Shown: one piece after another, positions 1-19,831 of the stretch
Layout: the number at the start of each line of letters is the position of its first letter
Numbering within the stretch: the stretch's first letter is position 1
Sequence record: SRR20825006_962
Strand: one strand, 5' to 3'
Length of the DNA stretch: 47,693 bases
The notes under the pieces: generated by a model
Told to the model about the DNA's origin: nothing
The model's input: only the letters and a program-made list of their open reading frames with translations
Databases searched by the model: none
Made by a program: the position numbers and the translations under genes

Positions 1-483
1 GTGCACATGATCGAGACGATCAACAAGCTCGTTCGTACTGGCCGCCAGATGCTGCACGAAATTGGTCGCGAAGCTACGCCGGAAGAATTGGCGGAACGCC
101 TGTCCATGCCGCTTGAAAAAGTGCGCAAGGTCATGAAGATCGCAAAAGAGCCGATCTCTCTTGAAACGCCAATCGGCGACGAGGAAGACAGCCATCTTGG
201 TGACTTCATTGAAGACAAAAACGCGATCCTGCCGGTGGATGCCGCGATCCAGAGCAACCTTCGTGAGACCACAACCCGCGTGCTGGCAAGCCTGACGCCG
301 CGCGAGGAACGTGTGCTTCGCATGCGCTTTGGTATCGGTATGAACACAGACCACACGCTCGAAGAAGTTGGTCAGCAGTTCTCGGTAACGCGGGAGCGGA
401 TCAGGCAGATCGAAGCCAAGGCGCTGAGGAAACTCAAGCACCCAAGCCGGTCACGCCAGCTCAGAAGCTTCCTCGATACCTAG
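1..483 (+). CDS. rpoD: RNA polymerase primary sigma factor RpoD, C-terminal part (runs off the window's 5' end)
   Basis: Regions 3-4 of sigma70: [61 protein letters not shown]. Confidence 0.98.
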
Positions 484-491
484 GGGCGCGG

Positions 492-1415
492 GTGAGAGCT
501 TTAGACAATAAAACAAGGGGTAGCCTTTACTGGCTGCCCCTTTTTGTCATCGGGGCTTTTCTCGCAACCAAAGTGGCTGCAGCAGAATATTTTACCAGCA
601 CAGACACCCAAGGGCGACGGCTGGTGGACGTGCAGGTTGATCACCATGGCAACTTCCCTTTCTTGATCGACACGGCGGCGAGCCATACCGTGTTTTATTA
701 CCGCCTGGTTGACGAAGTGGGGCTGGAGGCTGTGCCTCGCCGCTCGGCTGACGTGATTACGGCAACAGGCCAGCGGCCCATGCGTCTATTTAAGGTCGGG
801 CGTATTGCCACGCTCGGCGCTGTGCTGGAGCTCGAACACACAATTGCGATGCCAGATCAACGTGGGCCCAACACACCATACGGCATTGTTGGGGTTGATA
901 TGATGCGGGGGCGGGTTCTTGTGCTTGGCCCTGAGGGTGCACAGCTTTTTGAAAGCACAGCAGCATTTGAAGAAGGACAGGTGAAGGATATCGTTTGGCA
1001 GCAGGTGGCCGGGCGTGCAGTGGGGCGCGGCTCGGTTGCGGTAGATGTCAGCATTGGTGGACACATCATCCCAGCCGTTGTTGATACAGGCGCCGGGGCG
1101 ACAGTGATCAACCTCGCGGCAGCCGACATGATTCGCGCAGCGCAAGCCAGCGACGTTGAGTTTCGCTCAACCACCATTTCGGCCGCCGGTGGCCGTGTGC
1201 GGGCGGAAAACGTCCACATAGGCCGTATGTCGATTGGTGGCGTGAACCTTGGCTCCAAGGATATCCTTGCGGCTAATTTGCCGGTGTTCAGCACTTATGT
1301 GCCTTATACCGTACCCGCGATGATCCTCGGCGCCGATGTCTTGCTTAGCCAACCTGTCGCTATCGATTTTGACAGTTGGGCGATCTATCTGGGTACGCCT
1401 GCGAAAGCCGAATAG
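492..1415 (+). CDS. Secreted two-domain retropepsin-like aspartyl protease
   Basis: N-terminal signal-like hydrophobic stretch. Two catalytic motifs (FLIDTAAS, VVDTGAG), each followed by a G-[IV]-[VL]-G-x-D-like motif (GIVGVD, MILGAD). Confidence 0.85.
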   Translation: MRALDNKTRGSLYWLPLFVIGAFLATKVAAAEYFTSTDTQGRRLVDVQVDHHGNFPFLIDTAASHTVFYYRLVDEVGLEAVPRRSADVITATGQRPMRLFKVGRIATLGAVLELEHTIAMPDQRGPNTPYGIVGVDMMRGRVLVLGPEGAQLFESTAAFEEGQVKDIVWQQVAGRAVGRGSVAVDVSIGGHIIPAVVDTGAGATVINLAAADMIRAAQASDVEFRSTTISAAGGRVRAENVHIGRMSIGGVNLGSKDILAANLPVFSTYVPYTVPAMILGADVLLSQPVAIDFDSWAIYLGTPAKAE

Positions 1416-1420
1416 ATAGC

Positions 1421-1447
1421 AAAAGGCCCGACACTCGGCCGGGCCCT
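1421..1447. terminator. Hairpin between convergent genes, probable terminator
   Basis: AAAA-GGCCCG...CGGGCC; U-tract on the minus strand downstream of the flagellin. Confidence 0.55.
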
Positions 1448-1473
1448 CTATGAATTTCATTCAAATACTCAGC

Positions 1474-2304
1474 CTAGCTTTGAAACAAACCAAGGATCGC
1501 GGCAGGTTGCTGGTTGGCGATGGAGAGGCTTTGGATGCCAAGCGCCTGCTTCACCTGGCTGGCTTGAAGGTTGGCGCTTGAGGAAGCCAGATTAGCGTCC
1601 ACAAGGTTGCCGATGCCCACTTCCGTGGTGTTGCTCAGTGCTTCAGTAAAATCTTTGGTTTGCTGCAACTGCCGAGCACCAGATCCCAGTTGAGAGAGGA
1701 CGCTTGTGAGATTACCGAGGGAATCGTCAATCGCTGCAACAGCAGCTTGAGCGTCAGCGGCGGAGGCAATGCTTTGGCCTTCCGTGAGCGTGATATTACC
1801 GCCGCTCAGTGACAGGTCTTGCGCATCAATGGTGATGTTGCCATCACCCTCTGCACCAGTGATTGCGACGATATCGTCGCCACCCGCTTTGATGGCGTTG
1901 GTGCCGTTGAATTCTGCGGTCCCCACAATGCTGGTGATCTGGTCCTTGATCGCAGCAAAATCCTGATTGAGCGCACTGCGGCTCGCGTCGTCAAGGCCGG
2001 GGTCTGCGGCTTGAACCGCCTTCTCTTTTGCTTGCAACAGCAGGTCTGAGATCGAGCTGCTTGCCGCAAGCGCCACATCTGTGGTTGAGATAGCACGATC
2101 GAGCGAGTTTTTAACGCTGCCAAGCCCCGCAACATCGCTTTCAAGAAGCTGAGAGATCGCGAGAATAGCAGCGTTGTCTTTCACGCTGTTTACGTCTTTA
2201 CCGGTGGCAATCTCCTTCTGGGTGTTGCCCAGCGTGGAGTTTGTTTTCTGCAATGAACGAACGCCCAGCAAACTGCTGGCGTTTGTATTAATCGAATCTA
2301 CCAT
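1474..2304 (-). CDS. Short flagellin (start taken at MVDSINTN; the ORF extends to 2316)
   Basis: Flagellin N-terminus SINTN...IATGKDVNSVKDNAA, AEFNGTN, and C-terminus GNLVDANLA...QVKQALGIQSLSIANQQP. Confidence 0.92.
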   Translation of the reverse strand: MVDSINTNASSLLGVRSLQKTNSTLGNTQKEIATGKDVNSVKDNAAILAISQLLESDVAGLGSVKNSLDRAISTTDVALAASSSISDLLLQAKEKAVQAADPGLDDASRSALNQDFAAIKDQITSIVGTAEFNGTNAIKAGGDDIVAITGAEGDGNITIDAQDLSLSGGNITLTEGQSIASAADAQAAVAAIDDSLGNLTSVLSQLGSGARQLQQTKDFTEALSNTTEVGIGNLVDANLASSSANLQASQVKQALGIQSLSIANQQPAAILGLFQS

Positions 2305-2400
2305 TTTCAGCACCACTTAGCGGTTTCGCAGTCCCCACCGCAAAACCTGTTACCCAAGTGGTATTATGGCAGATATGAGCGTAAAAATGAAGAGATCGTT

Positions 2401-2431
2401 AAAATTGTGCGGGCCAGCCAGACCCGCACAA
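2401..2431 (-). terminator. Rho-independent terminator of the aminopeptidase gene
   Basis: TTGTGCGGG / CCCGCACAA stem followed by a T-run on the minus strand. Confidence 0.65.
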
Positions 2432-2456
2432 CCAAACTTGCAAACCCAGCGTCGAG

Positions 2457-3893
2457 TTATCGGCTATAGCTCAGAAAGGCTGCAACGCCATCTTTGAGCG
2501 CAAGCACATCCATCTTGTCGCTCACCGCATAGGGTGTGTGGATGGAAAGCACAGGCACGCCAAAATCGATTGTATCGATATTATAGTGCGCAAGCTCTGA
2601 CCCGAGCGTGCCGCCGCCTGCGCGGCCCACTTTATAGGTGGTGGTTTGCCATGCCACCTTACGCTCATCAAGCGCCGCCCGTGTCCAGGCGATAAACTCG
2701 CTGTTTGCGTTGAATCCACGCCCGTAAAGCTTGATGTTTACACCAAAGCCGAGCCGGGGGGCGTTTGTAAGCTCCCACGCACCGGGGTTCATGGGGTTCA
2801 CACCCGGGTTCACATCAATCGACAAAGCCTTGGAGGCTGTAAGCGCACGAGTAAGCATGGGGTGACGATAGTCAGAGCCTTTTTCTGCATAGAGCAGCTC
2901 ACCAACAAAGTCGGTCAGGAAGGTTGACGATGCGCCGGTCACGTTCACGTTGCCGCTTTCTTCATTATCAGCAAAATGAATGAGGGCGGTGTTTGGCGGG
3001 GTGCCCATTTCAGCCGCAGCTTTCAGGCTCGCAAAAGCGCCAAGCCGGTCATCCTGCCCGTAGGCTGCCAGCAGGCGGCGATCAAACCCCACATCACGCG
3101 GCGCGAGTGCTGGCACGAGCGAGAGCTCGGCCGAGACAAGGTCTGCCGCTTCCACATTGTAGGTTGCTTTCAAATGCTCAAACACCCATTCAGCTACAGG
3201 TGTTTTGCCGTGTGGGCCAGAGGCTGCGAGCGGATCAAGATCTTCATGCGCAACCACTTCGCTCGCGCTTCTTTTCATCTGGTCACGCGCTGTGTGCGGT
3301 GAAAGGTCAGGAATAATGAAGATGGGGTCATCAGCCTTGAGGCCAAGGGATACTTCAACAACGCTGCCATCCTTGCGGTCGATCCGGCCAACAAGGGCAA
3401 GCGGGATATTGGTCCATTGGTAGGTTTTGATGCCACCATGGTAGTTGGTTTGAAACAGTGCAAAGCCTTGCGCGTTATCAATCGGGCGGCCTTTCAACTC
3501 CAGCCGGGGGCTGTCGATATGGCTGGCCACAATACGCACACCCTTTGATACAGGCTCCCGGCCCCCAACAATAAGGGTGAAAGCGCGGCCACGGTTGTGC
3601 ACATAGTAGCGGTCTCCCGCTTTGATGCGCTGGTCTTGTTTCCATTCTTTGAAACCAAGGCGTTCCACCTGCTGCTGGATGGTGGAAACTGTCAAAAGCT
3701 CGGTGCGGGCTTCGCTCAGGAAACGGGCATATTCGTCAGCCAGGTCCATTGCGGTTTTTGCCGTCGCGTCGCTGGCGTCTTTCCAGGCGCTATCGCATGT
3801 GCCTTGGGCACAAGGTGCCGCCACTGAGGGCAGGGTCGGGATAAGGCAGGCAGCAGCCAAAAACGCTGCGCCAAGGGTAGGGCGGATGGTCAC
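2457..3893 (-). CDS. M18-family (aspartyl/aminopeptidase I-like) metalloaminopeptidase with signal peptide
   Basis: SHIDSPRL, YHGGIK, GQDDR, DNEESG, GGGTLG, DFGVPVLSIHTP motifs. Confidence 0.9.
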   Translation of the reverse strand: MTIRPTLGAAFLAAACLIPTLPSVAAPCAQGTCDSAWKDASDATAKTAMDLADEYARFLSEARTELLTVSTIQQQVERLGFKEWKQDQRIKAGDRYYVHNRGRAFTLIVGGREPVSKGVRIVASHIDSPRLELKGRPIDNAQGFALFQTNYHGGIKTYQWTNIPLALVGRIDRKDGSVVEVSLGLKADDPIFIIPDLSPHTARDQMKRSASEVVAHEDLDPLAASGPHGKTPVAEWVFEHLKATYNVEAADLVSAELSLVPALAPRDVGFDRRLLAAYGQDDRLGAFASLKAAAEMGTPPNTALIHFADNEESGNVNVTGASSTFLTDFVGELLYAEKGSDYRHPMLTRALTASKALSIDVNPGVNPMNPGAWELTNAPRLGFGVNIKLYGRGFNANSEFIAWTRAALDERKVAWQTTTYKVGRAGGGTLGSELAHYNIDTIDFGVPVLSIHTPYAVSDKMDVLALKDGVAAFLSYSR

Positions 3894-4024
3894 GGATATT
3901 CCTCCTGTCGGCCAATTGTTTTAAAACTGTCTTAGAATGTCGTTCCGCCCATTGCAATCCGGTTTGGGGCAACTTATATCGAAATGATACAGGGATCGGG
4001 ATCACATCTGTGAGAGGGGAAACA

Positions 4025-4249
4025 ATGAACGAATTTGAAATGGTGCCGCTGATTGTGTTGTTCGTGATGTCGGCGGTGATCGTTATGCGCTGGATCAGCG
4101 CCAAGGAACGGATTGCAAAATCACGCGGTATGAATGAGGCGGCGGACGCGCGCATCAAGGCGCTTGAGGAGCGGGTTCGGGTGCTCGAGCGTATCGCAAC
4201 AGACAAACGCACCAAGCTGCGTGATGAGATCGACGCACTTTCAGACTAA
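4025..4249 (+). CDS. PspB-like small membrane/coiled-coil envelope-stress protein, copy 1
   Basis: One TM helix plus LEERVRVLERIATD...LRDEIDAL; RBS GAGGGG. Confidence 0.65.
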   Translation: MNEFEMVPLIVLFVMSAVIVMRWISAKERIAKSRGMNEAADARIKALEERVRVLERIATDKRTKLRDEIDALSD

Positions 4250-4337
4250 ACCAACAAAACCACTTTGGGCACATAAAAACCAAGCCCGAACGGGCGGTAA
4301 TGCCCAAGCACCATAACGCGAGGACAGGAGCAGGCCG

Positions 4338-4562
4338 ATGGAAGGCAAAACATTTGTACTGTTGATTATATTCGGAACCTTTGCCTTTGCAGGCATTTCC
4401 CAGTGGCTTAAGGCCAAGACAGACGCACTTAAACATGCGGCAAAATCGGGCGATGATGAGCTTAAAGTCCATGTGCGGGCGCTCGAGGAGCGGGTGCGGG
4501 TGTTAGAGCGCATCGTCACTGACAAGAAAAACCGCCTTAAGGAAGAAATAGACGCACTTTGA
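4338..4562 (+). CDS. PspB-like small membrane/coiled-coil protein, copy 2
   Basis: One TM helix plus LEERVRVLERIVTD...LKEEIDAL; RBS AGGAG. Confidence 0.65.
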   Translation: MEGKTFVLLIIFGTFAFAGISQWLKAKTDALKHAAKSGDDELKVHVRALEERVRVLERIVTDKKNRLKEEIDAL

Positions 4563-4572
4563 GTGGCTCAAA

Positions 4573-4591
4573 GGGGCGCCTAGAGCGCCCC
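4573..4591. terminator. GC hairpin after the PspB-like genes
   Basis: GGGGCGC-CTAGA-GCGCCCC. Confidence 0.45.
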
Positions 4592-4669
4592 AACTCGGCT
4601 AATAATGCGAAGGGGCATTTTTCCACTACCCAAGCCAAGCTTCATTTGCTACACGAAGCCCCGTGGTTG

Positions 4670-4691
4670 GGGCCTGTAGCTCAGCTGGTTA
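4670..4691 (+). pseudogene. 5' stub of a tRNA-Ile-type gene (acceptor 5' strand and D-arm up to the D-loop); left junction of the island
   Basis: GGGCCTGTAGCTCAGCTGGTTA is a canonical tRNA-Ile 5' end. The expected GAGC continuation is replaced by AGGCTAG, and composition shifts towards AT after it. Confidence 0.8.
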
Positions 4692-4770
4692 AGGCTAGTT
4701 TACATCCCACCATATATACCTATTCAACCTAATTCCTTGATTTCGAAAGAGATCATGAATAGGTATATGT
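4692..4770. promoter_or_regulatory. att-like segment: 13-bp inverted arms flanking an IHF consensus
   Basis: ATATACCTATTCA (4714-4726) / TGAATAGGTATAT (4756-4768). 4730-4742 reads AATCAAGGAATTA on the minus strand, matching WATCAANNNNTTR. Confidence 0.6.
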
Positions 4771-4782
4771 CGCATTTCTTTC

Positions 4783-4859
4783 GGGCCGGTAGCATAATTG
4801 GTTAATGCAGAGCGCTCATAACGCTTGGATTGGGGGTTCGAGTCCCTCCCGGCCTACCA
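4783..4859 (+). tRNA. tRNA with CAT anticodon, most likely tRNA-Ile2 (lysidine-modified)
   Basis: Full cloverleaf: acceptor GGGCCGG/CCGGCCT, D-stem GCAT/ATGC, anticodon stem GAGCG/CGCTT with CAT at 4817-4819, T-loop TTCGAGT, ACCA end. C4-G69 and C5-G68 fit Ile2; no fMet hallmarks. Confidence 0.9.
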
Positions 4860-4869
4860 AAAAATCAGG

Positions 4870-4919
4870 ACCCGAGAGACACAGCCTTCTGGCTTGCTAG
4901 AAGGCTGTGTCTCTCGGGT
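4870..4919. terminator. 21-bp perfect inverted repeat between the convergent tRNA and gmtX-like gene
   Basis: ACCCGAGAGACACAGCCTTCT / AGAAGGCTGTGTCTCTCGGGT. Confidence 0.7.
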
Positions 4920-4930
4920 AGGCTTTGTTG

Positions 4931-5671
4931 CTACTTATTTCCGAGTAGAGCGCAAATCTTCTGTATGGCGAATTCAAAAGCAACGCCAGATACTATAGCG
5001 ACTTTAGGGTTTGGGCTTATCTGTAGCCGACCTTCTTTTGTGAAAGAAATGCCGCGACGTTTCATCCTTCCAGAATCTAAAAAATCGTTGAGGGCTTCTA
5101 TTTCGGCTACATCAAATACGGACAGATCCGTAGCAGGTGGGGTGGATTCTGAATTTTGTGACCTTGATTGTCCTGGGCGTGACCGGAGAGACACAACGGG
5201 TAGGTTGGAGATTTCTCTAGTCATTCTTAGTTGGTTTTCGAGGTTCCTGTAGTTCTCGTTTAAATAAGCGATTTTGTGTCGTAGGACCCTGTCTTGGATC
5301 GAGCAGAGTTCAGAGTGTGAGATGAGGCCTATCGGTTCTACCGGGGTTGAATCTTCAGGCGTGCGCTTGCGGATATCGAATACAAGGATCCATGCATCCA
5401 ACAGTTCTCGGTATGCGAGAAACCTCTCTTGTCGGCGGTCGTAGAAGGATCTTTGGGCGATAGCGCAATCAGGATGATGCGTCGCTATCCACTTCCTGAC
5501 ACCAGCCACAGTAGGTGTGCCTCCTGCGTCCACTATGGAGGCGCACGCTCTATGCACAGCGGTGAGTTTTTTATGAGTATCAATTCTGGAGCTTTTGAGC
5601 AGCCGCTGGAATTTTTCTTCCACATGTCGAAGCTGCGCGCTCATATCAGGTGATGGCATTTTTCGGTCCAT
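4931..5671 (-). CDS. gmtX: Gamma-Mobile-Trio GmtX-like protein
   Basis: Third gene of the overlapping trio; N-terminal helical region and coiled coil (LRHKIAYLNENYRNLENQLRM). The call rests mainly on synteny. Confidence 0.6.
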   Translation of the reverse strand: MDRKMPSPDMSAQLRHVEEKFQRLLKSSRIDTHKKLTAVHRACASIVDAGGTPTVAGVRKWIATHHPDCAIAQRSFYDRRQERFLAYRELLDAWILVFDIRKRTPEDSTPVEPIGLISHSELCSIQDRVLRHKIAYLNENYRNLENQLRMTREISNLPVVSLRSRPGQSRSQNSESTPPATDLSVFDVAEIEALNDFLDSGRMKRRGISFTKEGRLQISPNPKVAIVSGVAFEFAIQKICALLGNK

Positions 5672-8654
5672 GACTATTCGAAGTCTGTTGAGCGATTGTG
5701 ATGTTTTGGTGTGCCGCCAGAAGTGAACCTATTTCCAGATCAAGACCTAGGTCTTCTAGTGTAACCGTGCGGTGTGCAAGCCGTTCGCATTCGACTGCTC
5801 CTACGTTGATCAGAAGATATTTGGCGAGTGCATCAGCGGCTCGCTGTTTGGTAGCGGTGTCTAGTGGCGCCATTGCTAGTGGTTGGAAGCTGTTGTGATA
5901 AAGAATATTGTCAATAAAGGCGTCTCGTTCTTGCTCAAGGCGTTCGTCATGAAGTATGGGGTAAAGTCTAGACCCTTGGACCACCCTATCTATTTGCTCA
6001 AACCGACTACCTTCCTCAAACCCTGCAAAGTCAATGCTTTGTGGTGAGAGTAATTGGTTTTTGGTGCTATCGTCATCGCGGCTTTCAACGTGGTTCAAAT
6101 TCAAAACTGCGGTGAAATAGCGAAATGCAGCATGTAGGTCCAACATCAATTGATCCAGCTTTCTTGGTTCAATGTCTTGGCGCGATTCCAGTACTCGAAC
6201 ACGGCGCCGCAACGCCGCAATTTCATCTGGCTGACCTTGCAGTTTATGGCTCCGATACAGTTCATTTTGAAGTTCGGTAAGGGTTTCAGTTTCTTGCTCG
6301 ATCAACCGAGCTTGATCGGATATTGCAGCCAGAAGCTGTTCGCATTTAATCCATAAAGGCAGCAGGAATGGCTCTCCGGTAACAAAATGCCTACATTGTA
6401 AACAATGACCAGCCCCTCCGGGCACAGCACCAAATATGTCTTGCCCAGATTTATCTCGTTTGAGAACTGGCCCACCATCTGAACACCTTGTGCCACCGTA
6501 CGGACAGAAACCTATACCCATGTCAGATATGAGTGCAGGCGTGGTTCTATTTTGCAGCGTGAATTCACTTGCCGCCACGGCTATACGGGAAGCCTCGTCG
6601 TGTGAGGCGTCAGCTAAAAATCGCCTTAAGTTGTCGGTGGCGTTGGCTTCAATTTTCTCTCTGGCTTCTGTAAGTAAATCGGTGATGTGGCCGGGGCGAA
6701 ACTTTAGGTAATGCAGGGTCATGAGTATGCTTGAGTGTCCAGCGACAAGTTTGCTCAATATGTCGATTGGAACGCCTGCTTCCGCAAAAGCGGTGAGGCC
6801 AGTCGTTCGTAAACCATGCATGCTGAAGATAGAGGCGATTGCAGCTCCGCCGGAATCCCGTTTCGTGACTATCTGAATATCATCGTCTTGTTGTTTTAGC
6901 CTGTTCTCCAATTCACTCATCCATGCATGAAAAAAGTTATTACACATGCCATAGGATGGTGGTGCAGTGTTCGTGTCCCTGCGGCCTTTGGCTGGTATTC
7001 GAAAAAGATAGAAGCGGGCGGGAATGCTTGCTAGTGCGGCTTCGCTCGGACGGTTCGCTCGGCTCTCAAATGTGCCACTGGGCAAATCTCTATATTCCGT
7101 TGGACCTAGAACGGTATTGTATCGCTCTTGCCAAAGTCTGAGCTCTGAGAACAGCCGAATTAGATATTCGTTCTGCCAAGGAATGATGTAGCCAGAATGT
7201 TCGTCGAATTTATTCTTTCTGTCTGTAGTCTTGTTTGTGTTTATGTAGATCGAAGCCCTAGCCTGACCGTCATATATCACTCGGTGAACTGCGCCTCTGT
7301 TCAGGACGCTGCAGGTGTAGTCATTCCTCCAATAGTTTGCGTGCGGGCCATCATTCTTAATCCATCTGTTTTGGGTGGGTAGGTAACGAAATTCGTCTCC
7401 TTCACCAGAGTCCAAGCATCTGACTTGTATCGACCGGATGGGTAGCTCCAACAGGGTAAGGAAAACAAATGTGATGCTAGGGCACCATTGGTCAATGTAA
7501 GCTTTCTTTTTTCTGTCGAAGACCCGGAACCACTGATTTTCCAGGCTCTTTGGCCATGCATAGTCGTTCTCTTCAAGTATCTTGCGTGCAAGTGTCAGAT
7601 ATTTGGTTGGTATAGGAATTGTCACCGCCTCAGAAGGTTTGGTGCTTGTGAACCGTCGGGTCGCGAGGAGTTCCTGATACTCTCGTCTTGTGACAAGAGG
7701 TTGTATCTGGTAGCTCTCACTTCCGTTTCGGCTGGCGGGAGTGGCAAAAATATCTTCGCGTAGAAAATCAACAAATCTACGCATATAGCCTACATGTTGT
7801 ACTAGTGTATTCTCAGTGCAGTTCTGAGAAAGTAGGAATTCCGGGAAACTGGGATTGGTGCGCGCCACTGATAGGAAGGTAGTCGGAAGCTGGTATACCT
7901 CGCTAGGGTATGTGGTAAGCCAATAACAGAAAAGCCTAAAGGCAGTACGGATACCTTTTGTGCACTTTATGGCGATTTGCCTTAGCCAGGCATTTAATAA
8001 GTCTAGCCATTGCTGAAGTTCCGTTGGGCAGACCTCAAAAACGTCTAGCCCCCCTGCGTGCGTGCTAAATATTTTTCCGAGACGGCGAACCTTTACCAGG
8101 GAGAGATAACCGGCTTGGTGGTTTTTTTCGTCGAGAATTTTCGCAACACCACGCAACGCGCTGATGACCATATCATGGATGCCAAGGTCTTCTCGAAAGC
8201 GCGTTCCATCTTCAATTCTGAGGGGAGAAATAAAAGCTTTCCATACGTTCAGATCAATTTCGCTTGTATGCTTAGCGGTTGTGGATAATGCGACGGCTAA
8301 CGCTGCTTTGCGAATACGACGACGTTGTATGCGATTGGCTTGTTCAAAAAGTGAGGACTTCTTAAACTCGTCAATGAGCGGGAATTCGGCTTCGAGCTTG
8401 CGCTGCAGTTGATTGGTTTGGATGCTTGGTGGCCACTCAACAGTGTACACGTATAGTGACGGGAAGAGTGCGCCGTGCTCATGATGCAGAGACTTGATCA
8501 TATTAGTAAAAACCGAACTATCCGCACCTACGCTTTTGGCATTTGCACCAATTTCCTGCAGTCGACGCACAAGTGTCCGCGGAGCGCCCGGCGCAAAGAA
8601 TTGGGGGTCTGTATTTACTCGAATATTATTCTGCCCTACCGTTTCTATCGCCAT
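5646..8654 (-). CDS. gmtZ: Large tyrosine recombinase, GmtZ/VPA1269-like
   Basis: LPIRSIQVRCLDSGEGD, YINTNKT, HGLRTTGLT, LVAGHSSILMTLHY, and Cys cluster CPYGGTRC...CLQCRHFVTG. Confidence 0.8.
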   Translation of the reverse strand: MAIETVGQNNIRVNTDPQFFAPGAPRTLVRRLQEIGANAKSVGADSSVFTNMIKSLHHEHGALFPSLYVYTVEWPPSIQTNQLQRKLEAEFPLIDEFKKSSLFEQANRIQRRRIRKAALAVALSTTAKHTSEIDLNVWKAFISPLRIEDGTRFREDLGIHDMVISALRGVAKILDEKNHQAGYLSLVKVRRLGKIFSTHAGGLDVFEVCPTELQQWLDLLNAWLRQIAIKCTKGIRTAFRLFCYWLTTYPSEVYQLPTTFLSVARTNPSFPEFLLSQNCTENTLVQHVGYMRRFVDFLREDIFATPASRNGSESYQIQPLVTRREYQELLATRRFTSTKPSEAVTIPIPTKYLTLARKILEENDYAWPKSLENQWFRVFDRKKKAYIDQWCPSITFVFLTLLELPIRSIQVRCLDSGEGDEFRYLPTQNRWIKNDGPHANYWRNDYTCSVLNRGAVHRVIYDGQARASIYINTNKTTDRKNKFDEHSGYIIPWQNEYLIRLFSELRLWQERYNTVLGPTEYRDLPSGTFESRANRPSEAALASIPARFYLFRIPAKGRRDTNTAPPSYGMCNNFFHAWMSELENRLKQQDDDIQIVTKRDSGGAAIASIFSMHGLRTTGLTAFAEAGVPIDILSKLVAGHSSILMTLHYLKFRPGHITDLLTEAREKIEANATDNLRRFLADASHDEASRIAVAASEFTLQNRTTPALISDMGIGFCPYGGTRCSDGGPVLKRDKSGQDIFGAVPGGAGHCLQCRHFVTGEPFLLPLWIKCEQLLAAISDQARLIEQETETLTELQNELYRSHKLQGQPDEIAALRRRVRVLESRQDIEPRKLDQLMLDLHAAFRYFTAVLNLNHVESRDDDSTKNQLLSPQSIDFAGFEEGSRFEQIDRVVQGSRLYPILHDERLEQERDAFIDNILYHNSFQPLAMAPLDTATKQRAADALAKYLLINVGAVECERLAHRTVTLEDLGLDLEIGSLLAAHQNITIAQQTSNSHGPKNAIT

Positions 8655-10312
8655 TGCTGAAACAGCCTTTCCAATTTTTCATCAAAGTAGCTAGGTGTCG
8701 GTTGGTTCAGGGGGGCGTTTGCACTTTCAATTGCTCGCCGCGCGCAATTAAGTTCCTCTTCAATGCGGGATGCGGTCGGTTGTGTATAAACCGCCTGGCT
8801 TGCAATGCTTCTGTGCCGCATGCATTTTTGTATCACCCTTCTTGGGAGCCCTGCATTTTCTAGGGTTTGCCCATAAAAATGACGTAGACCATGCACTGTG
8901 GTTCCGTTCTCTTTTGAGTAGTTAATGGCACAGCCATGGACTGCGTTCACTCTGTTGAGTGCGCGTTTATATGCTTTGATGAAAGAGTTGATTGAGAGTG
9001 GGTCTCCTACGTAGGAGACGCCACGCGATCTATCTTCACCAGTACTTACAAAGAGAAAGGGATGGTCGCTTAATCCGCGTGCGCAACGCGCCTTTATCAG
9101 TGTAGTCCTAAATTTTAGGTAATACTCATAATACTGAATAAATTCCCTGCGAACGTGTTCATGCAGAAAGAATATGTTGGCGGTGTGGGAGCTATCGGTT
9201 GCAATTGATTTCCACCCGGCGTGCATTGAGTTGGAGTTTTTTATCTGATGCCTTGGCCAAAGTCCTCGGATGCGCAGGTATTCGCCCCTTAACAACGTTT
9301 CACCGACTATGTGTGTTTGGGCCTGAGATGGGTGACGTAGAAACACCCGGCCATCGTACCGGCTTTGCTCAAAGACGACATCGCTGAACCACAGATGAAA
9401 AGGCTCAGAGACGCGCAGGCCTGCGAACGCCAATAACATGAATATCATTTTGCCAGCGAGATCCTCGCGTTCATGCAGCGAGTTGGCGGCAGGGTTTTTC
9501 ACGAAACCAACTTGAAGGAGATCAAGAACCAAGTTCTGGGGAGTGTGTAGCGCGGGCTCAACATCGACCTGAGGGCATGAATCGCGCTTGAAGTTGTCAG
9601 ATAGGAACCTACTCATGAGCGAACCGCTCTCCGCAATGCGTTGGCTGTTGAGGTGGTTGAAAAATCTGAGCTTTTTAATGATGAACGACGTGTGGAGAAA
9701 GTCGTACAAAAATTGGGTTTTTCGAAGCCGGTTTACGCTATCTGATATCAGGCGAGCATCTGAGACGCTCCCTTGGTTTTCTCCTGCCCAATGTGAGAAC
9801 TTTGTAATATGCGAGAAATATCGCTTGGCACGATCAGTGGATATTGCTGGCCAATAAAGGTCGGTAGTAACGGCAAGCGCGTTTTGTCCACCAATGCCGG
9901 CGCTCAGTGCAAAGCAAAATTCCCGCAGCACAAATTTATGAGGATCTAGATGTTGGGGTAATTCGCTGGCGGGAATTTCCATCGCCGAGAGGAAGTCATA
10001 AAATAGCCCCAAGGCACGGGCCACCTCACGCATCCACCCTAAACTGCGACTGCGTAGCGCTAGAAAATAATCGATGAGCGGCTCGAATGCTTCGGCCGAA
10101 TGATCGGAATGTCTCATCCATAGTACGGGAAGCGCGGTAGCCTCTATACCATCAATGTTGTGTAGTAATATGACATGGTACTTACCTACTGGGTATATCC
10201 GATTGGCCATTGAAAGAACTCCTGAGAGGGTCAAGCCCTCGCCCAATGTTCTTCCGCATTCCGGAAAGTTTGGCCTCGTGCCTTCAATATGTTGGGTGTT
10301 GAAAGGCAGCAT
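8645..10312 (-). CDS. gmtY: Tyrosine recombinase, GmtY-like
   Basis: FAGLRVSEPFHLW, LRHPS, HAGWK, HPFLFV, HGLRHFYG, MRHRSIASQAVYTQP; overlaps the next gene. Confidence 0.8.
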   Translation of the reverse strand: MLPFNTQHIEGTRPNFPECGRTLGEGLTLSGVLSMANRIYPVGKYHVILLHNIDGIEATALPVLWMRHSDHSAEAFEPLIDYFLALRSRSLGWMREVARALGLFYDFLSAMEIPASELPQHLDPHKFVLREFCFALSAGIGGQNALAVTTDLYWPAISTDRAKRYFSHITKFSHWAGENQGSVSDARLISDSVNRLRKTQFLYDFLHTSFIIKKLRFFNHLNSQRIAESGSLMSRFLSDNFKRDSCPQVDVEPALHTPQNLVLDLLQVGFVKNPAANSLHEREDLAGKMIFMLLAFAGLRVSEPFHLWFSDVVFEQSRYDGRVFLRHPSQAQTHIVGETLLRGEYLRIRGLWPRHQIKNSNSMHAGWKSIATDSSHTANIFFLHEHVRREFIQYYEYYLKFRTTLIKARCARGLSDHPFLFVSTGEDRSRGVSYVGDPLSINSFIKAYKRALNRVNAVHGCAINYSKENGTTVHGLRHFYGQTLENAGLPRRVIQKCMRHRSIASQAVYTQPTASRIEEELNCARRAIESANAPLNQPTPSYFDEKLERLFQQWR

Positions 10313-10735
10313 AAACGATGGGGCTTTGTTTAATTTATTTAAATTTACTTAAGCATTATCCATTTGTCATCTGCATATTTTAATTAATATTTTTGTTTTG
10401 TTTATTTTATATTTAACAAACAAAGTGTAGTGGATGTTATTTATTTTTAAATACTGGTATTCTGAATGGTATTGTGGCTTCTTATTTGTTATCGATTGCT
10501 CGGAATACATCTTTCTTGCGATTGGTCGCCTGTGATATGACAAAGCGGTATCGAGCTGTATTCGTGATGAGTTGGGTATTCGTTCTGCATATCGGACATA
10601 AAATTGGGCGTGCAAATTGACGCTGAAAGTGCCGATTCTAAAAGTAAACTTTGAGCGTCCAGCGTTAACCATATTTGTTTAGTTTGTGAGCGAGTGAGAT
10701 GTCGCGTATTAGGCTCATTCAGTTGACAGGGGAGC

Positions 10736-11224
10736 TCAGGCCCGGGAACTCATTGGCTGCCCACAGCGCACGATGTTTGCTAGGCCGTTTTCGTAGTGAC
10801 CTACTCCTATCCATACCGCCTCCCATCCTACGATCGCAAAGACCATGGTCCTGCGAGTGCGGGCTACGGCATCCTTCCAAGAACTTAAATCGATGATAGA
10901 CGGAGAAGGGACGTGTTCCGGGTGGGAATGCCATTCTCCAACATAAGTCACGACGCGATTACTCCTGCGCCAACACTTTGTTGCCAACCTCTGATGCGTG
11001 GCATCTTTCCGGTGAAAGGCATACTTTGAGGCGCGGTCCTGCAGCTGTTGAACTGTGGCCCCTACAACATCGATATGATGCCCTCGATAACAACCGAGAA
11101 GAACGCCCCCGGTTTCGGTGTTTTTACGCCGTTTGGCCTCCCTGTTAATCTTGGAAAGCACGCTGCGTCGGATCAAGAGATACTGACCCTGTAAGCTCAA
11201 TTCGGCTACAAAGTCGGAAAGCAC
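10736..11224 (-). CDS. Cap3-like JAB/MPN isopeptidase, orphan second copy (start may be GTG at 11209)
   Basis: ETGGVLLG...YVGEWHSHPE...PSPSIID JAMM motif. Confidence 0.85.
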   Translation of the reverse strand: MLSDFVAELSLQGQYLLIRRSVLSKINREAKRRKNTETGGVLLGCYRGHHIDVVGATVQQLQDRASKYAFHRKDATHQRLATKCWRRSNRVVTYVGEWHSHPEHVPSPSIIDLSSWKDAVARTRRTMVFAIVGWEAVWIGVGHYENGLANIVRCGQPMSSRA

Positions 11225-11745
11225 TTAGGGCACCTTTTATCTCTGTCAGGTGAGCGATCTTTGACCAGTTTGGTTACTGTCGGGTCTGTATCGATGGCCC
11301 TAGTGCGTAATCTATTCCCGTTTTTACCGCTGGCCCAGTCTAACATCATCTCTAGTGCAAGGCCTGCCGCAGTTGCTGATGCTGCAACAGAGTAGGGGAT
11401 ATAGACTCCATCTGTGCAGGTTGCCGAAATAAAATGATCCCGCCCAGGGTCTTTGAGCGGCGTGTATCTTGATACCTCGCCAAATATTGGTGATAGGCAT
11501 TGGTAGCAGGCCTTTTCTTGATTGTTCACCAATAGTGCCTGCGTTGCCGCTCCAAAACCTTCGAGCCAAGCGAATAACAGATCAGGATACTCTTCGAAGC
11601 TAGCATCGTTTCCTTTGAAGGCGTTAAGTGCCTTTGAAAACGTCGTATCCCCAGTTGCATCCACGATCAGGTCATATCCGTAAAAATCCCCAAAGTGATC
11701 TTGTGCCGCTTCAGTGATCGCATGAATGCTCTTGCCGGGGTAGAT
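11206..11745 (-). pseudogene. 5'-truncated Cap2 (C-terminal part of the E1/ThiF domain only)
   Basis: YDLIVDATGD, ACYQCL, SATCTDGVYIPY, LDWASG, CPKC align with Cap2 at 13905-15566. E2 domain and GxGxxG are absent; in-frame stop at 11746-11748. Confidence 0.8.
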
Positions 11746-11881
11746 TCAGGTATATTTCCGGAAATGGGTGACGGTTTTCTAGTAACAGTGTTAGCGATGT
11801 GCCTTCAAATATTACAACGATGTGCCTAGTTCGAAGGTACCTCCCGGCTGTAACTTTTAGCCTATCGATGAAGCGAATATT

Positions 11882-12070
11882 GTGATGACAGAAACAGATG
11901 AGGAATATGAGTATCGTGTCATTGGTTGGCGGAACTTTGAGAAAGAGAGTATTTCTGCGGTTCTAGACAACCTCCTGGCAAACGGTTGGGAGTTGGATGG
12001 TGATGAATATGTCAAGGCAGGCATGTTGGTTGATCTGACCAACCAACGGCTGCGTCGAAGAGTTTCATGA
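11882..12070 (+). CDS. Small acidic hypothetical protein (DUF4177/DUF1737-like)
   Basis: YEYRVI...LDNLLANGWELDG pattern. Confidence 0.45.
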   Translation: MMTETDEEYEYRVIGWRNFEKESISAVLDNLLANGWELDGDEYVKAGMLVDLTNQRLRRRVS

Positions 12071-12147
12071 TTTGATGAAATGAGTGAGCCGCGTTATCGG
12101 CTGTGTCTGACAAGGGGATCGCACCTGTCTGAGTATGACTAGGATGC

Positions 12148-12324
12148 AGCCCTTACTGTCGTGAATCACGACAATAAGGGCTAAAAAGCGTCTTCTGACT
12201 GCTATTGTCGTGATTCACGACAATAAGGTTTCAAGGAAGCTCATACGGCCTATTATCGTGATTCACGATAATAGGGTCTAAAACTGGCTCAAAGCGTCTT
12301 ATTATCGTGATTCACGATAATAAG
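12148..12324. repeat. Array of four 23-bp palindromes TATTRTCGTGAWTCACGAYAATA with a 48-49-bp period
   Basis: Centres at 12165, 12214, 12262 and 12311; 25-26-bp variable spacers. Confidence 0.95.
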
Positions 12325-12365
12325 TGGAAGGCTGTCCCATTTCTCGATGCCGATTTAATGATGGA

Positions 12366-12614
12366 TTATTTACGGTGCCAAGTCCGAGGAGTTAGGTCGT
12401 CAGTCATGTCTAGGAAGATTCGTTGTGCAAATGACATTCTGGTCTGAGGCGACATTGAGGAAGTTTTAATTAGACCAATACATGCACGAAAAGCAGCATT
12501 GATTCCAAATCCTGCGCGTGTTTCGTCATCGTCCACATAGTCGTGTACGGCATTGGCTATGGTCTGCTCCAACTCGTGAGCTTCGACAGCTTTCTTTTCA
12601 ACAGATTCTATCAT
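12366..12614 (-). CDS. Hypothetical 82-aa protein divergent from the XRE gene
   Basis: ATG at 12614 preceded by AAGGGAG; no family recognised. Confidence 0.5.
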   Translation of the reverse strand: MIESVEKKAVEAHELEQTIANAVHDYVDDDETRAGFGINAAFRACIGLIKTSSMSPQTRMSFAQRIFLDMTDDLTPRTWHRK

Positions 12615-12730
12615 GCGTACTCCCTTTTCAGCCAAGCTACGATACCAACTCGTATATATATACAAGAAAACAAAAAAATATAGCATATACATATATGTTT
12701 TTCTGGCCGGACTAGTTGCAATTTCCTAGT

Positions 12731-13081
12731 ATGGAAAACCTAGAAAAACTGGTCGGACAAAGAATTCGCGCATTGCGCAGATCCCATGGATGGTCGCAGG
12801 AAGAACTGGCTGCCCGTGCACAAAAGTCGGTCTATACGCTTTCTTTGCTGGAGCGGGGTGTCAATCTACCAAACCTTAGGACGCTCGTGGACTTAGTGGA
12901 TGCCTTAGGGTGTAGCCTAGACGAAGTTGTTCTCGGCCAGGGGCGCGCAACCGACAAAAAGAAACCGCGCGAGCATATTGAAATTGAAACACAGGTGCAT
13001 GCTGAGATTTCGTCCATGGACCTGAAGACGCTTAGGGCCACTCAAGGGGCCGTTGCGGCAATTCTAGAAGCACAGAGATAA
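12731..13081 (+). CDS. XRE/Cro-CI helix-turn-helix regulator
   Basis: VGQRIRALRRSHGWSQEELAA...LSLLERGVNLPNLRTLVDLVDALG. Confidence 0.9.
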   Translation: MENLEKLVGQRIRALRRSHGWSQEELAARAQKSVYTLSLLERGVNLPNLRTLVDLVDALGCSLDEVVLGQGRATDKKKPREHIEIETQVHAEISSMDLKTLRATQGAVAAILEAQR

Positions 13082-13443
13082 GACCTTAAGCGATCATATA
13101 TCCGCCTCACGACTGGATACGTGTGGGAAATGCTAGCGCGGTGTTGCCAAAGGTCCGCCGTCCTTGGTCAGGAGATTGTATGGCCCTATAAAAGCGTGGC
13201 CATCTAGTATGGACTGTAAAATTCACGAGTGAGCAAGATTATTCAATAGAAGACAGGACTCAAGAAGACAGGACTCACGAAGAATCGATGAGAAAATCGT
13301 TGGTTTTCGGCTGTGTGAATCAAGGGCCTTTAAACCAGTCCACGCTTCTTCTGATAAATCCTCTCTACTTTTGATGAGGCTGAGAAGCAAGATGCCATTG
13401 AAGCCCTGCGGCCGAACAACGTCCAACATGCATGGCAATGGGG

Positions 13444-13908
13444 CTATGAATAGAGCAGGAAAGCACTAGTTTCGTCGGAGACTTTTAATTCTATTGGGTG
13501 TTTCGTTCCCGCGACGATTAGTCCGACATAGGTTTTCGACGTTCCCGCGACAAAAAACACCATATGCTGCGTGGTATGTTCGGTAATCGCTCTCCAGGTT
13601 GAGCGGTCAATATAAGAGGGTGCAGCCTGTCCAAAAGGGTGTGTGTGCCATTCGCCTATCCAGTCAGTTTTCCCTCCAGACTTAAACCATTCCCGATTTG
13701 CAACGTCACTATGTCCATCGGTAGACCGAAAAAAACTTGCTCGCGTTCCGATATCGGAAGGGAAAGGGGTTGTTATTTTTGTAACTTCCAATGCCCCGTT
13801 TTTGCGACAGCCAAGTACCAACCCTCCGTGCTCAACTTGGTTTAGAGGTTTTTTCAGAAAGCCACGCATCTGCGCTATAGCTCTCTTGGCCACCAAAACC
13901 TTGGTCAT
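13444..13908 (-). CDS. cap3: CBASS Cap3 JAB deconjugase
   Basis: EHGGLVLG, IGEWHTHP...PSYID; overlaps the cap2 stop. Confidence 0.9.
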   Translation of the reverse strand: MTKVLVAKRAIAQMRGFLKKPLNQVEHGGLVLGCRKNGALEVTKITTPFPSDIGTRASFFRSTDGHSDVANREWFKSGGKTDWIGEWHTHPFGQAAPSYIDRSTWRAITEHTTQHMVFFVAGTSKTYVGLIVAGTKHPIELKVSDETSAFLLYS

Positions 13909-15566: not shown

Positions 15567-16750
15567 TAGGCGGAGGTTGACGTGATAATGGAAGGTGCGG
15601 GAACGCTGGCTGCTGCTGATTTCTGAATGACGCTGATTTGATCCTCAAACTTCACCGCGTCAGGGCAGTCGGGCATGCGATCGCCAAAAGCTTTTATCAG
15701 TGTTTGCACGACTTTTGTAGCGTCTCCGGTTTGGGTGAGTGCGGTCTTCATTTTCACTGCCAGTTCGCGAGCCGCATCGACCAAGATGAGCTTTTCTTTG
15801 TTTGTCCAGTCATTCAAGATGAGGTTCCCAAGCACCGGATTCTTTATCTTGCCATCTAGAATGTCAGGCAGGATCGCCGCCACCTCAAGAACGAGCGCAT
15901 CATCGCGCGTTTCAACTGGGGCACCATCGAGGTCCTGCAATGCCTTGTCGACCGCACACATAATACATAAAGATGAAAGTGGGGAGATCGGCCAACTAAA
16001 ATCCCGCCAACCTTTGAAGAAGCGGCTAAGTCTACGATAAACGGGGCCGTATCGCTCCACTCTACCCATTACCCAGTCATGTAGCTTTTGCGGGTCTGAC
16101 TCTAGCCAAGTGCCGTTCCGTTTTGCCAGCATAACTTGATCTGACGGCAGTTTGGCTGCTGTATTCAGCCGACCATGAGACATTTTGGCGAGGTTCACGT
16201 CTTCACGTAACGCTTCTACAATACGCTCGAAACGATCAGCAGGAACCGAATAGATCGGAACATCAATGTGCGCGCTGCGAGACAAGCATACACGCACGCA
16301 GCTGCTCTTTGTTTCGTCTAAACTCCAATTGTTTTCGTCGCACAGATCCCCCAACGCTTGTTCGACGAACTTGAAAAGCCCTTTTGCGGTGAGCGCAGGT
16401 TCACCATTTTCCAAGAACTCGACGGGGATATACATCCCGTCGTCCAGGTCAATTTGTTGTTGGGGTACAAAAATTGGCGCGTTAATAGTGCCATAAGCAA
16501 AGCTGCCCTGCGTCATGAACTTCACTTCAATGGTAGGGCGGCGCGTTGAAGGAACGCTACGAACGTAGCGTTCATCCCAAAACTCATCTTTGCCGCGTAT
16601 CTTGCTAACGGCAGTTCGCAAGCAAGTACGAATTTTATTTCGAGCGTTCATGAGTTTCTTCCGATCCTCATCAGGAATCGTAAGTCTCGCCAGATAGCTG
16701 GGTTCTTGCTTTAATCCATTGAATAGTGCGTGGGCATTCGCTTGCATCAT
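15566..16750 (-). CDS. CBASS CD-NTase (DncV/CdnA-like cyclic dinucleotide synthase)
   Basis: TQGSFAYGT...QIDLDDG, KSSCVRV, HIDVPIY, SDP, FKGWRD; extended tail ending ITSTSA, the kind of tail conjugated by Cap2. Confidence 0.92.
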   Translation of the reverse strand: MMQANAHALFNGLKQEPSYLARLTIPDEDRKKLMNARNKIRTCLRTAVSKIRGKDEFWDERYVRSVPSTRRPTIEVKFMTQGSFAYGTINAPIFVPQQQIDLDDGMYIPVEFLENGEPALTAKGLFKFVEQALGDLCDENNWSLDETKSSCVRVCLSRSAHIDVPIYSVPADRFERIVEALREDVNLAKMSHGRLNTAAKLPSDQVMLAKRNGTWLESDPQKLHDWVMGRVERYGPVYRRLSRFFKGWRDFSWPISPLSSLCIMCAVDKALQDLDGAPVETRDDALVLEVAAILPDILDGKIKNPVLGNLILNDWTNKEKLILVDAARELAVKMKTALTQTGDATKVVQTLIKAFGDRMPDCPDAVKFEDQISVIQKSAAASVPAPSIITSTSA

Positions 16751-16826
16751 TGAGTTTCCCTAGCCAACTATTTGATATAGAAATGTGGATATTAACACAG
16801 CTTCGTGCAAGTGGAACACTTAACCA

Positions 16827-17513: not shown

Positions 17514-17648
17514 CCGCGAACACCGATCTTATGCAGTTTGGAAATGGCTAGAGCCCGTTCATTCAATGTTGGCGGTCGGGCGCCCAACTGATGATATGAT
17601 TTGGTGCGGCATGCGACCTGCATCGCGTCTGGTGCGACAATGGTGCAA

Positions 17649-17957: not shown

Positions 17958-18058
17958 GATTTGTTCCCCCCCCCTGTCGCCTCTACCCCAAGGCGAATTC
18001 TACACACAAAATGGTTGAGTTGGGAAGTTATTAGCTGTTTACTTAAAGCAATTGGCTA

Positions 18059-19830: not shown

Positions 19831-19831
19831 A

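Follow-up and report, generated by a model that had tools for sequence, protein, structure and literature searches.

A Gamma-Mobile-Trio type island in the D-arm of a tRNA(CAT) gene, carrying a complete tRNA(CAT) of its own

A 47,693-nucleotide stretch of DNA from sequence record SRR20825006_962 (the window, meaning the whole stretch that was analysed) contains a tRNA gene that stops after 22 nucleotides and, a short distance downstream, a complete tRNA gene with a CAT anticodon. The question raised by this locus is how the first gene came to be broken and what the second one does beside it. In the reading favoured here, which is given a probability of about 0.8, a Gamma-Mobile-Trio (GMT) island inserted site-specifically into the D-arm DNA of the host's single Ile2-type tRNA gene, inactivated it, and supplies a complete tRNA(CAT) of its own. 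The host gene is broken, a relative has the empty site, the insert carries the gmtY-gmtZ-gmtX trio and an intact replacement gene, and the design recurs on three other tRNA species.

The interrupted tRNA gene and its empty site

The two tRNA features of the window are listed below.

Positions 4670 to 4691, plus strand: 5' stub of the host tRNA(CAT), GGGCCTGTAGCTCAGCTGGTTA, equal to nucleotides 1 to 22 of the intact tRNA in locus L001
Positions 4783 to 4859, plus strand: complete tRNA(CAT), 77 nucleotides, CCA encoded (ARAGORN; Rfam RF00005)

L001 is a 21-kb chromosome locus of a near-isogenic Kordiimonas metagenome-assembled genome, and G001 is the island-free genome to which it belongs. L001 is 100% identical to the window over positions 1 to 4691 and diverges from position 4692. 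At the point of divergence it has an intact 77-nucleotide tRNA(CAT), which reads GAGCCGGCCGCTCATAA... after the stub letters. The stub, reported by the first-pass annotation as a 22-nucleotide tRNA 5' end and identical to the start of this gene, comprises the 5' strand of the acceptor, the 5' strand of the D-stem, and the D-loop. Because the L001 tRNA consists of the stub and the continuing intact gene, the break in the window's host gene falls where the D-loop meets the 3' strand of the D-stem. The same annotation held that an island breaks the host tRNA in its D-arm and that the stub and the full tRNA are two different genes. Both statements are borne out by the empty site, where an intact tRNA occupies the position of the stub and the 4783 to 4859 sequence is missing.

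Further relatives of the flank were found by searching with its M18 aminopeptidase. This gave 53 loci, 16 of which are from Kordiimonadaceae; the contigs of three of the 16 stop before the site. All 13 that reach it have a single intact tRNA(CAT) with no stub, and in this comparison of island-free relatives, which had been proposed with the first-pass annotation, the stub together with the island tRNA was found in none. The D-arm varies at one D-loop position only across the 13 host genes. The inverted repeat of the host site is the D-stem itself (GCTC, nine nucleotides, GAGC), and the break lies at the edge of its right arm. In the published GMT set, an inverted repeat of at least 5 nucleotides was present at 238 of 366 insertion sites (Mahata et al., 10.1101/2023.03.28.534373); the 4 bp found here fall below that criterion.

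A classical tRNA-integrating island would place the host gene at 4783 to 4859 and the island to its right, with the stub as a leftover attachment (att) repeat. It is consistent with tRNA genes being common integration sites and with the drop in G+C content that starts right after this tRNA. Classical tRNA integrators cross over in the anticodon loop, the T-loop, or the 3' end, and a partial tRNA copy in attP restores the gene. Here the stub is the 5' part of the tRNA rather than the 3' part, no 3' repeat is present in the window, and the only repeat of the host tRNA is its 5' 22 nucleotides, so the attL/attR pattern of such elements is not seen. The explanation is refuted by the empty site in L001, which has the intact tRNA at the stub position and where the best match to 4783 to 4859 is 80% identical, and by host-type sequence in all 13 relatives. 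It is considered extremely improbable.

An assembly chimera of two strains or two tRNA loci is given equally little weight. The source is probably metagenomic, and one relative described below (L095) resembles such a join. The same junction is nevertheless present in contigs of four out of four public runs (X15 to X18, two studies) with no differences in the flank, and the same architecture occurs in independent metagenome contigs. The four runs may include the window's own source and are therefore not independent support.

The island tRNA, the island end, and the gmt trio

The complete tRNA(CAT) is the sole tRNA found in the window by ARAGORN and scores 66.2 bits against RF00005, for which the gathering score is 29. 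As the first-pass annotation had it, this gene begins 91 nucleotides downstream of the stub. It has the orientation of the broken host gene and lies just inside the border; therefore it could be read from the host tRNA promoter.

Island and host tRNA differ at 17 of 77 positions. The island copy nevertheless folds into a cloverleaf in which all 21 pairs are standard. Its inner D-stem pairs 12-24 and 13-23 (numbered by sequence count) are changed on both sides, from T-A to A-T and from C-G to T-A, and among 14 aligned sequences this two-sided change is found in the island tRNA only. On direct reading the tertiary partners co-vary as well: 15/48 changes from G/C to A/T, nucleotide 46 from G to A, and 26/44 change together. 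In the established fold of tRNA, nucleotide 46 is stacked upon the 13-22 pair. The conserved positions T8, A14, G18, and G19 and the T-loop TTCGA are present. Immediately right of the break, the host has the five bases GAGCC where the island copy has ATGCA. Since 15 of the 17 differences belong to co-varying sets, the copy appears to be a selected, working tRNA rather than a decaying one. The D-arm pattern of the island tRNA had no matches in viral contigs.

The identity of both tRNAs was judged from the acceptor stem. The 5' acceptor strand of the tRNA-Ile(GAT) of G001 is GGGCCGG, which the island tRNA matches at 7/7 positions and the host target (GGGCCTG) at 6/7. The corresponding strand of the elongator-Met type of G001 is GGCCGAG, and the host and island stems are unlike both this type and the initiator type. 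The likeness to tRNA-Ile(GAT) therefore argues for an Ile-type body in target and island copy, and by analogy both are probably tRNA-Ile2. Annotation of E. coli gave no guide to the isotype, as blastn returned no match there for either tRNA. The TilS determinants C4-G69 and C5-G68, reportedly from work on E. coli, were dropped as an argument, as loci L012 and L014 have G-C there.

The CAT-type tRNAs of G001 were counted with a pattern running from anticodon to T-loop, the bare CTCATAA pattern being uninformative. Five hits were obtained: two initiators, one initiator 3' fragment, one elongator-Met type, and the target, whose type is thus single-copy. Non-tRNA sequence precedes the initiator fragment (L148, in the region of G001:450802-450830), which begins within the anticodon loop; this is what a classical integration at the anticodon loop leaves behind, here at another place in the island-free chromosome.

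Demand for AUA decoding differs along the window. Open reading frames (ORFs) of the host flank contain 3 AUA codons in 1384 (2.2 per 1000), and island ORFs contain 119 in 10,236 (11.6 per 1000). The gmt genes alone have 40 in 1803 codons; therefore the island's recombinases would need an AUA decoder.

Between the stub and the island tRNA lies the end of the island. Its features, and the terminator beyond the tRNA, are as follows.

Positions 4692 to 4697, plus strand: junction hexamer AGGCTA (direct reading; analogy with relatives)
Positions 4698 to 4711, plus strand: gmtX-side terminal motif of the island, GTTTACATCCCACC
Positions 4714 to 4726 and 4756 to 4768: perfect 13-bp inverted arms with a 29-nucleotide spacer between them
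Positions 4730 to 4742, minus strand: exact match to the IHF consensus WATCAANNNNTTR, within the arm spacer
Positions 4870 to 4919, minus strand: hairpin with 24-bp arms followed by a T-run, gmt operon terminator, located between the tRNA and gmtX

The hexamer matches the host sequence GAGCCG at 2 of 6 positions. At its place, relatives have a perfect or imperfect second copy of tRNA nucleotides 22 to 27; the flanking copies are GGACA on both sides in L098, GGAAA and GGACG in L093, GAGCAT in L117, and GAGCAAG in L071. By this analogy AGGCTA would be the crossover segment, and it may be a relic of a previous target. The first-pass annotation also pointed to a dyad at the junction (TAGC...GCTA); the letters are there, and any role for them is unsupported.

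The outermost island sequence, GTTTACATCCC (4698 to 4708), read as its reverse complement, resembles by eye the gmtY-side ends of the tRNA-Arg islands described below (...GGATGTGAAAC). Allowing up to 3 mismatches in 15, a search of the window gave no second copy of the terminal motif. The inverted arms around an exact IHF consensus, also part of the earlier description, are present as stated there, and the arms include an AGGTAT/ATACCT motif that is repeated at the island ends of relatives. The IHF match is suggestive only, because the window contains 4 matches and 1.63 are expected from shuffles. Arms and IHF-like site are probably the recombinase and bending-protein sites of the island end.

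Three consecutive genes, in the order gmtY, gmtZ, gmtX, follow on the minus strand with overlapping reading frames.

Positions 4931 to 5671, minus strand: gmtX, 246 aa (NCBIfam NF040692, E = 9.4e-10, 38.4 bits, cut-off 40; no Pfam hit)
Positions 5646 to 8654, minus strand: gmtZ, 1002 aa, large tyrosine recombinase (Pfam PF13009, Integrase_2, E = 1.4e-47, and PF00589; NF047926, E = 4e-127, 425 bits, cut-off 600)
Positions 8645 to 10312, minus strand: gmtY, 555 aa, tyrosine recombinase (PF00589, Phage_integrase, E = 1.3e-11; NF040693, E = 4.9e-85, 286 bits, cut-off 340)

For each protein the gmt family is the best NCBIfam hit. Judged by their profile matches, the three are distant members of the GMT families and not equivalogs by NCBI thresholds, and by its gene content the inserted DNA is a defence island of the GMT type. 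The catalytic residues H613, R616, H640, and Y649 of GmtZ (H-x-x-R, H, Y) are invariant in an alignment of 21 sequences. Its closest database relatives are at most 38% identical and are labelled 'VPA1269 family' or 'GmtZ'. No match to GmtZ was found in species genomes, 401 of the class (E ≤ 1e-20) and 201 of the order (E ≤ 1e-10), an empty answer that is uninformative. The gmtX gene lies 72 bp from the tRNA and approximately 240 bp from the visible border; all other cargo is upstream of gmtY.

Relatives with the same break on other tRNA genes

Metagenome contigs were scanned with the GmtZ alignment, and 80 loci were kept, with identities of 24 to 39%. Pieces of tRNA genes were sought in these contigs, which are fixed in extent, by ARAGORN, tblastn, short-blast, and direct reading. 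The same break was found in 28 of the 80 loci, in tRNA-Glu(CTC), tRNA-Arg(TCT), or tRNA-Arg(CCT). The other 52, among which short contigs and the remotest relatives of GmtZ are numerous, gave no tRNA piece.

The tRNA-Glu(CTC) type has five loci (L089, L090, L093, L098, and L115). In each, gmtX is followed by a complete tRNA-Glu(CTC) of opposite orientation and, after 115 to 190 bp, by the 5' stub of another tRNA-Glu, which is 23 to 26 nucleotides long in four loci and 13 nucleotides long in L090. Both ends are visible in L090, L093, and L098, where the whole islands are approximately 10 to 11.6 kb. In these the 3' fragment of the host gene stands alone at the other border, 1.2 to 3 kb upstream of gmtY, and the host gene is not rebuilt in any of the three. 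The terminal inverted repeats of L098 are AAATACCCCC. In L093, a second and diverged island-end motif (cctgccacgtgtgcaagttcgataggttagg...) lies past the tRNA-Glu stub (12250 to 12400, minus strand), which suggests a remnant of an earlier island at the same site.

The tRNA-Arg(TCT) type has 20 loci. Here the 3' fragment starts at the same D-loop/D-stem boundary and lies 150 to 250 bp upstream of gmtY. At 19 of the 19 printed borders, L095 set apart, a conserved island end (GGTAA..GGTAA..TAGGRTGT..AAAC) precedes the fragment and no tRNA 5' part is present; the gmtX-side ends of most of these islands lie beyond the contig data. In L095, positions 3989 to 4230 contain an intact tRNA-Arg(TCT), a partial tRNA-His, and, adjoining gmtY, the Arg 3' fragment; the assembly of this contig has probably joined variants with and without the island that were present in one sample.

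The tRNA-Arg(CCT) type has two loci. At the gmtY border of L106 the 3' fragment lacks an intron and the gene is not rebuilt; a complete tRNA-Arg(CCT) follows gmtX. L117 has a complete tRNA-Arg(CCT) that bears an insert, with a 27-nucleotide stub approximately 830 nucleotides further on. Inserts of approximately 230 nucleotides in the anticodon loop are found in the island tRNA-Arg of L106 (9395 to 9700), L117 (9290 to 9595), and L071 (3037 to 3316, minus strand). The insert of L071, a TCT locus, is a group I intron (Rfam, 76.8 bits); those of the two CCT loci gave no Rfam hit at gathering score.

L071 and L072 lie approximately 40 kb apart on one metagenome contig, on which two GMT islands are apparently arranged in tandem, gmtY-side end to gmtX-side end. 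The junction consists of one island end, GAGCAAG (tRNA nucleotides 23 to 29), and the end of the other island, with a tRNA-Arg(TCT) approximately 190 bp further on.

Wherever the gmtX-side end is visible, a complete tRNA with the same anticodon lies inside it, and no island with a visible opposite end shows a rebuilt host gene. The split gene is flanked only by a repeat of 5 to 7 nucleotides that is often imperfect, and no att direct repeats of a tRNA 3' part are present.

From these arrangements a mechanism can be proposed. The tyrosine recombinases GmtY and GmtZ, with GmtX as a DNA-binding partner, would insert the island at the D-arm inverted repeat GCTC/GAGC. The cut would fall at the boundary between the D-loop and the 3' D-stem, leaving a 22-nucleotide 5' stub. 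The 5' piece of the host gene would then stand at the gmtX-side end and the 3' piece at the gmtY-side end, as in relatives. With the host tRNA inactivated, the island tRNA(CAT) may restore decoding, with transcription that would start at the host tRNA promoter and run across the stub and the 91-nucleotide leader. Coordinated respelling of the D-stem, the D-loop, and their variable-loop partners would keep the fold and change the insertion site, and the respelled D-arm may protect the island copy from the island's own recombinases. The cell would rely on the island to decode AUA and, its own gene remaining broken, could lose the island only at a cost.

Extent of the insert and points that weigh against the reading

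The insert is longer than 43 kb and runs to the end of the window. Its G+C content is approximately 0.48 after 5 kb, compared with approximately 0.56 in the flank. The stretches 4692 to 24691 and 27694 to 47693 gave no match of high identity in G001, the closest being a paralogous efflux region at 77% and the tRNA itself at 80%. The intervening stretch (24692 to 27693) was compared only with the 21-kb L001 and not with the whole of G001. The remaining features of the window are listed below.

Positions 1 to 483, plus strand: rpoD 3' end (host flank; Pfam; 100% identity to L001)
Positions 492 to 1415, plus strand: aspartyl protease (host flank; Pfam)
Positions 1474 to 2316, minus strand: flagellin (host flank; Pfam)
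Positions 2457 to 3893, minus strand: M18 aminopeptidase (host flank; Pfam)
Positions 4010 to 4249 and 4338 to 4562, plus strand: two paralogous small ORFs (host flank)
Positions 10313 to 47693: rest of the insert, upstream of gmtY (Pfam)
Positions 10736 to 11224: Cap3-like JAB (NF050170, E = 1.8e-29, below cut-off)
Positions 12149 to 12322: palindrome array, four copies of 23 to 28 bp (TATTRTCGTGATTCACGAYAATA) at 48 to 49 bp spacing
Positions 13444 to 13908: Cap3 of a cyclic-oligonucleotide-based anti-phage signalling system (CBASS)
Positions 13905 to 15566: CBASS E1/E2
Positions 15566 to 16750: CBASS CD-NTase
Positions 16827 to 17513: weak Cap15-like match

Further cargo includes an NS endonuclease, two TonB receptors, a Czc-type RND pump, an IS3-type transposase, MFS and LysR genes, and an ABC transporter. 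Directly upstream of gmtY and apart from the complete CBASS set, the second Cap3-like JAB and an adjoining 152-aa ORF without family hits occupy 10736 to 11664. The palindrome array has an operator- or iteron-like look, with a 108-aa ORF on one side of it and, on the other, the ORFs that lead to gmtY. In the host flank, the two small ORFs (79 and 74 aa) stand in tandem directly upstream of the broken tRNA. Each has a single hydrophobic stretch near the N-terminus; they have the motif ALEERVRVLERI in common and a 48-nucleotide stretch repeated at 83%.

The far side of the insert was sought in the window and in the four runs. Past the break, the 3' part of the host tRNA would be expected to read GAGCCGGCC...CCA. 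The window contains no host tRNA 3' end (up to 3 mismatches), no downstream flank of L001, and no reverse complement of the terminal motif, and an Rfam scan at E-value level found no partial tRNA in it. In X15 to X18, every island-bearing contig matches L001 as far as the stub and no further. The two longest (47,823 and 47,825 nucleotides) have 43,002 nucleotides past the break, equal to the island part of the window, and end at the same base. The last 44 nucleotides of the window (47650 to 47693) match G001 at 1,968,567 with 100% identity, and parts of them match two other places; together with the shared end of the run contigs, this repeat indicates that the window stops at a dispersed repeat. 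When contigs of the four runs were placed on L001:6000-11000, the host 3' fragment and the flank at 6000 to 9147 were uncovered at 90% likeness or more, which does not imply absence. Only short, mismatched tRNA pieces of other contigs aligned there.

Several observations weigh against the favoured reading. The far border lies beyond the window, and only the analogy with relatives speaks against a rebuilt host tRNA at it. The Ile2 assignment is based on acceptor-stem likeness and analogy, not on an isotype model. The three NCBIfam scores are all under the curated equivalog cut-offs (286/340, 425/600, and 38.4/40). The 17-nucleotide D-arm holds 6 of the 17 differences from the host tRNA, a modest excess only. 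Recoding of the D-arm is also uneven among relatives: L115 differs in the D-loop only, and the D-stem of L093 is that of the host. The first-pass annotation had proposed a whole tRNA recoded at the target; a complete copy with a respelled D-arm is present here, and as a general feature the recoding is weak in some relatives. No sigma-70-like promoter was predicted at 4500 to 5000, and no RNA run was found that holds the island-tRNA stretch. Finally, each of the four runs has a contig of approximately 9 kb (9035 to 9224 nucleotides) with another tRNA, the last 49 nucleotides of which differ from the host tRNA(CAT) at 4 positions and whose D-arm is spelled GTTC...GAAC. It could be a replacement allele on a small element, or belong to another organism; should both occur in one cell, the island copy could be dispensable.

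These points bear on the explanation that the island tRNA is redundant cargo, the host gene being rebuilt at the far end or present in another copy, with the island gene serving AUA-rich or AUG codon use. The far end is outside the window, the island genes are rich in AUA, and a tRNA with a similar 3' half is found in the same runs, all of which would suit this explanation. In relatives, however, the host gene is not rebuilt in 3/3 Glu islands, at 19/19 printed Arg(TCT) borders, or in L106, and the complete tRNA always has the anticodon of the broken gene. The depth of the 9-kb contig relative to the island contig varies from approximately 0.2 to 1.4 among runs; therefore that contig is probably another replicon or organism. 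Redundant cargo is considered quite unlikely.

The position of the trio also counts against the favoured reading. In the published rule, the gmt genes stand at the 5' border with cargo downstream of gmtX (10.1101/2023.03.28.534373). The trio of the window lies at the opposite border and has at least 37 kb of cargo upstream of gmtY; therefore the insert of more than 43 kb may be composite. A short GMT element with gmtYZX and the tRNA, from 4692 to approximately 10.5 to 12.4 kb, would then lie beside unrelated islands, and the host 3' half would have been lost or moved later. The published rule is in keeping with this, as are a downstream L001 flank that is different in the island-bearing runs and the CBASS parts, the IS3 transposase, and a rise in G+C content at 24 to 32 kb, which suggest a mosaic. 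Against it, the window has no tRNA 3' fragment or second terminal motif upstream of gmtY, although Rfam does detect such fragments in relatives (29 to 36 bits), and the Glu-type relatives likewise have 1.2 to 3 kb between the border and gmtY. A composite is a possibility, though a somewhat unlikely one. A candidate 5' border just upstream of gmtY (approximately 10.4 to 10.6 kb, with AATACC-like repeats and the motif ACATCCAC) was rejected for its wrong motif order and the lack of an adjoining tRNA fragment.

Relation to known elements

Several kinds of elements resemble the favoured reading in part. Sublocation classes of tRNA-integrating elements were reportedly distinguished by Williams in 2002. 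Tn554 (tnpA, tnpB, and tnpC) and the GInt islands (ginABCD) are said to combine several tyrosine recombinases with a small protein, to insert in one orientation at one site, and to leave imperfect flanking repeats or carried-over junction bases; their likeness to the island of the window is by description only. To our knowledge, neither is known to target tRNA D-arms or to carry a replacement tRNA. In elements that integrate into dusA, the gene is said to be restored by the element's own 5' segment.

GMT islands of the VPaI-6 type from Vibrio parahaemolyticus, as described in the main text of the preprint, insert through a circular form, free of the flanking repeats, at specific sites built on inverted repeats, require all three proteins, move replicatively, and carry defence cargo (Mahata et al., 10.1101/2023.03.28.534373). 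GmtX is said there to resemble the DNA-binding domain of StbA, and islands that have inserted within a gene are said 'often' to contain a homologue of that gene. That main text nowhere uses the word tRNA. The island of the window agrees with published GMT islands in its trio, site-specific insertion, anti-phage cargo (here CBASS), and homologue of the disrupted gene; the inverted repeat at its site has 4 bp. Unlike them, it targets a tRNA D-arm, carries a whole tRNA, and has gmtX at the visible border; its Gmt proteins are 24 to 39% identical to those of the relatives found and fall under the NCBIfam cut-offs.

As in classical tRNA islands and tycheposons, at least as the latter are outlined in their preprint (10.1101/2020.12.28.424599), a tRNA gene serves as a conserved landing site for cargo. 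Such elements leave att repeats of partial tRNA, whereas the island of the window breaks its target near the 5' end, leaves it unrestored, and brings a complete gene besides. The dusA-specific integrases, in the account of PMC4482086, likewise use the 5' end of a conserved gene, but that target is protein-coding and a single integrase is involved. Dada DNA transposons of fish, as reported in PMC8869645, also insert at fixed positions inside tRNA or snRNA genes; these are eukaryotic and depend on a multicopy target, whereas the island of the window supplies a replacement.

Both the class of element and the notion that it brings a homologue to compensate are already in print. A tRNA D-arm target, replacement by a whole tRNA, and coordinated respelling were not found in the literature searched, and the supplements of the GMT preprint may list tRNA sites; the tRNA D-arm variant with a whole replacement tRNA appears to be new.

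A broader and more tentative proposal, held at slightly less than even odds, is that a clade of GMT islands has specialised on the D-loop/D-stem sublocation of tRNA genes by destroying and replacing them. Insertion would be replicative, so that the gene stays split, and the cell's sole source of an essential single-copy tRNA, here the AUA decoder, would be island-borne. Its D-arm and tertiary partners would have co-evolved away from the recombinase target, and in some Arg islands it has a group I intron as well. Such islands would be self-immune and addictive and would use the host promoter.

In the textbook picture, crossover occurs in the 3' half of the tRNA gene and a partial copy restores it. 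Here the 5'-proximal D-arm is broken, the gene is left split, and a whole substitute is provided, and this destroy-and-replace arrangement is seen on at least four tRNA species. It is a natural case of coordinated respelling of a tRNA D-arm and its tertiary partners, and it gives testable targets of approximately 20 to 30 bp for programmable GMT insertion. For annotation, the end of a GMT island can be recognised by a 5' tRNA stub and, approximately 0.1 to 0.8 kb further on, a complete tRNA adjacent to gmtX. Should the cell have no copy other than the substitute, the arrangement would be a gene-for-gene hostage mechanism that keeps defence islands in place.

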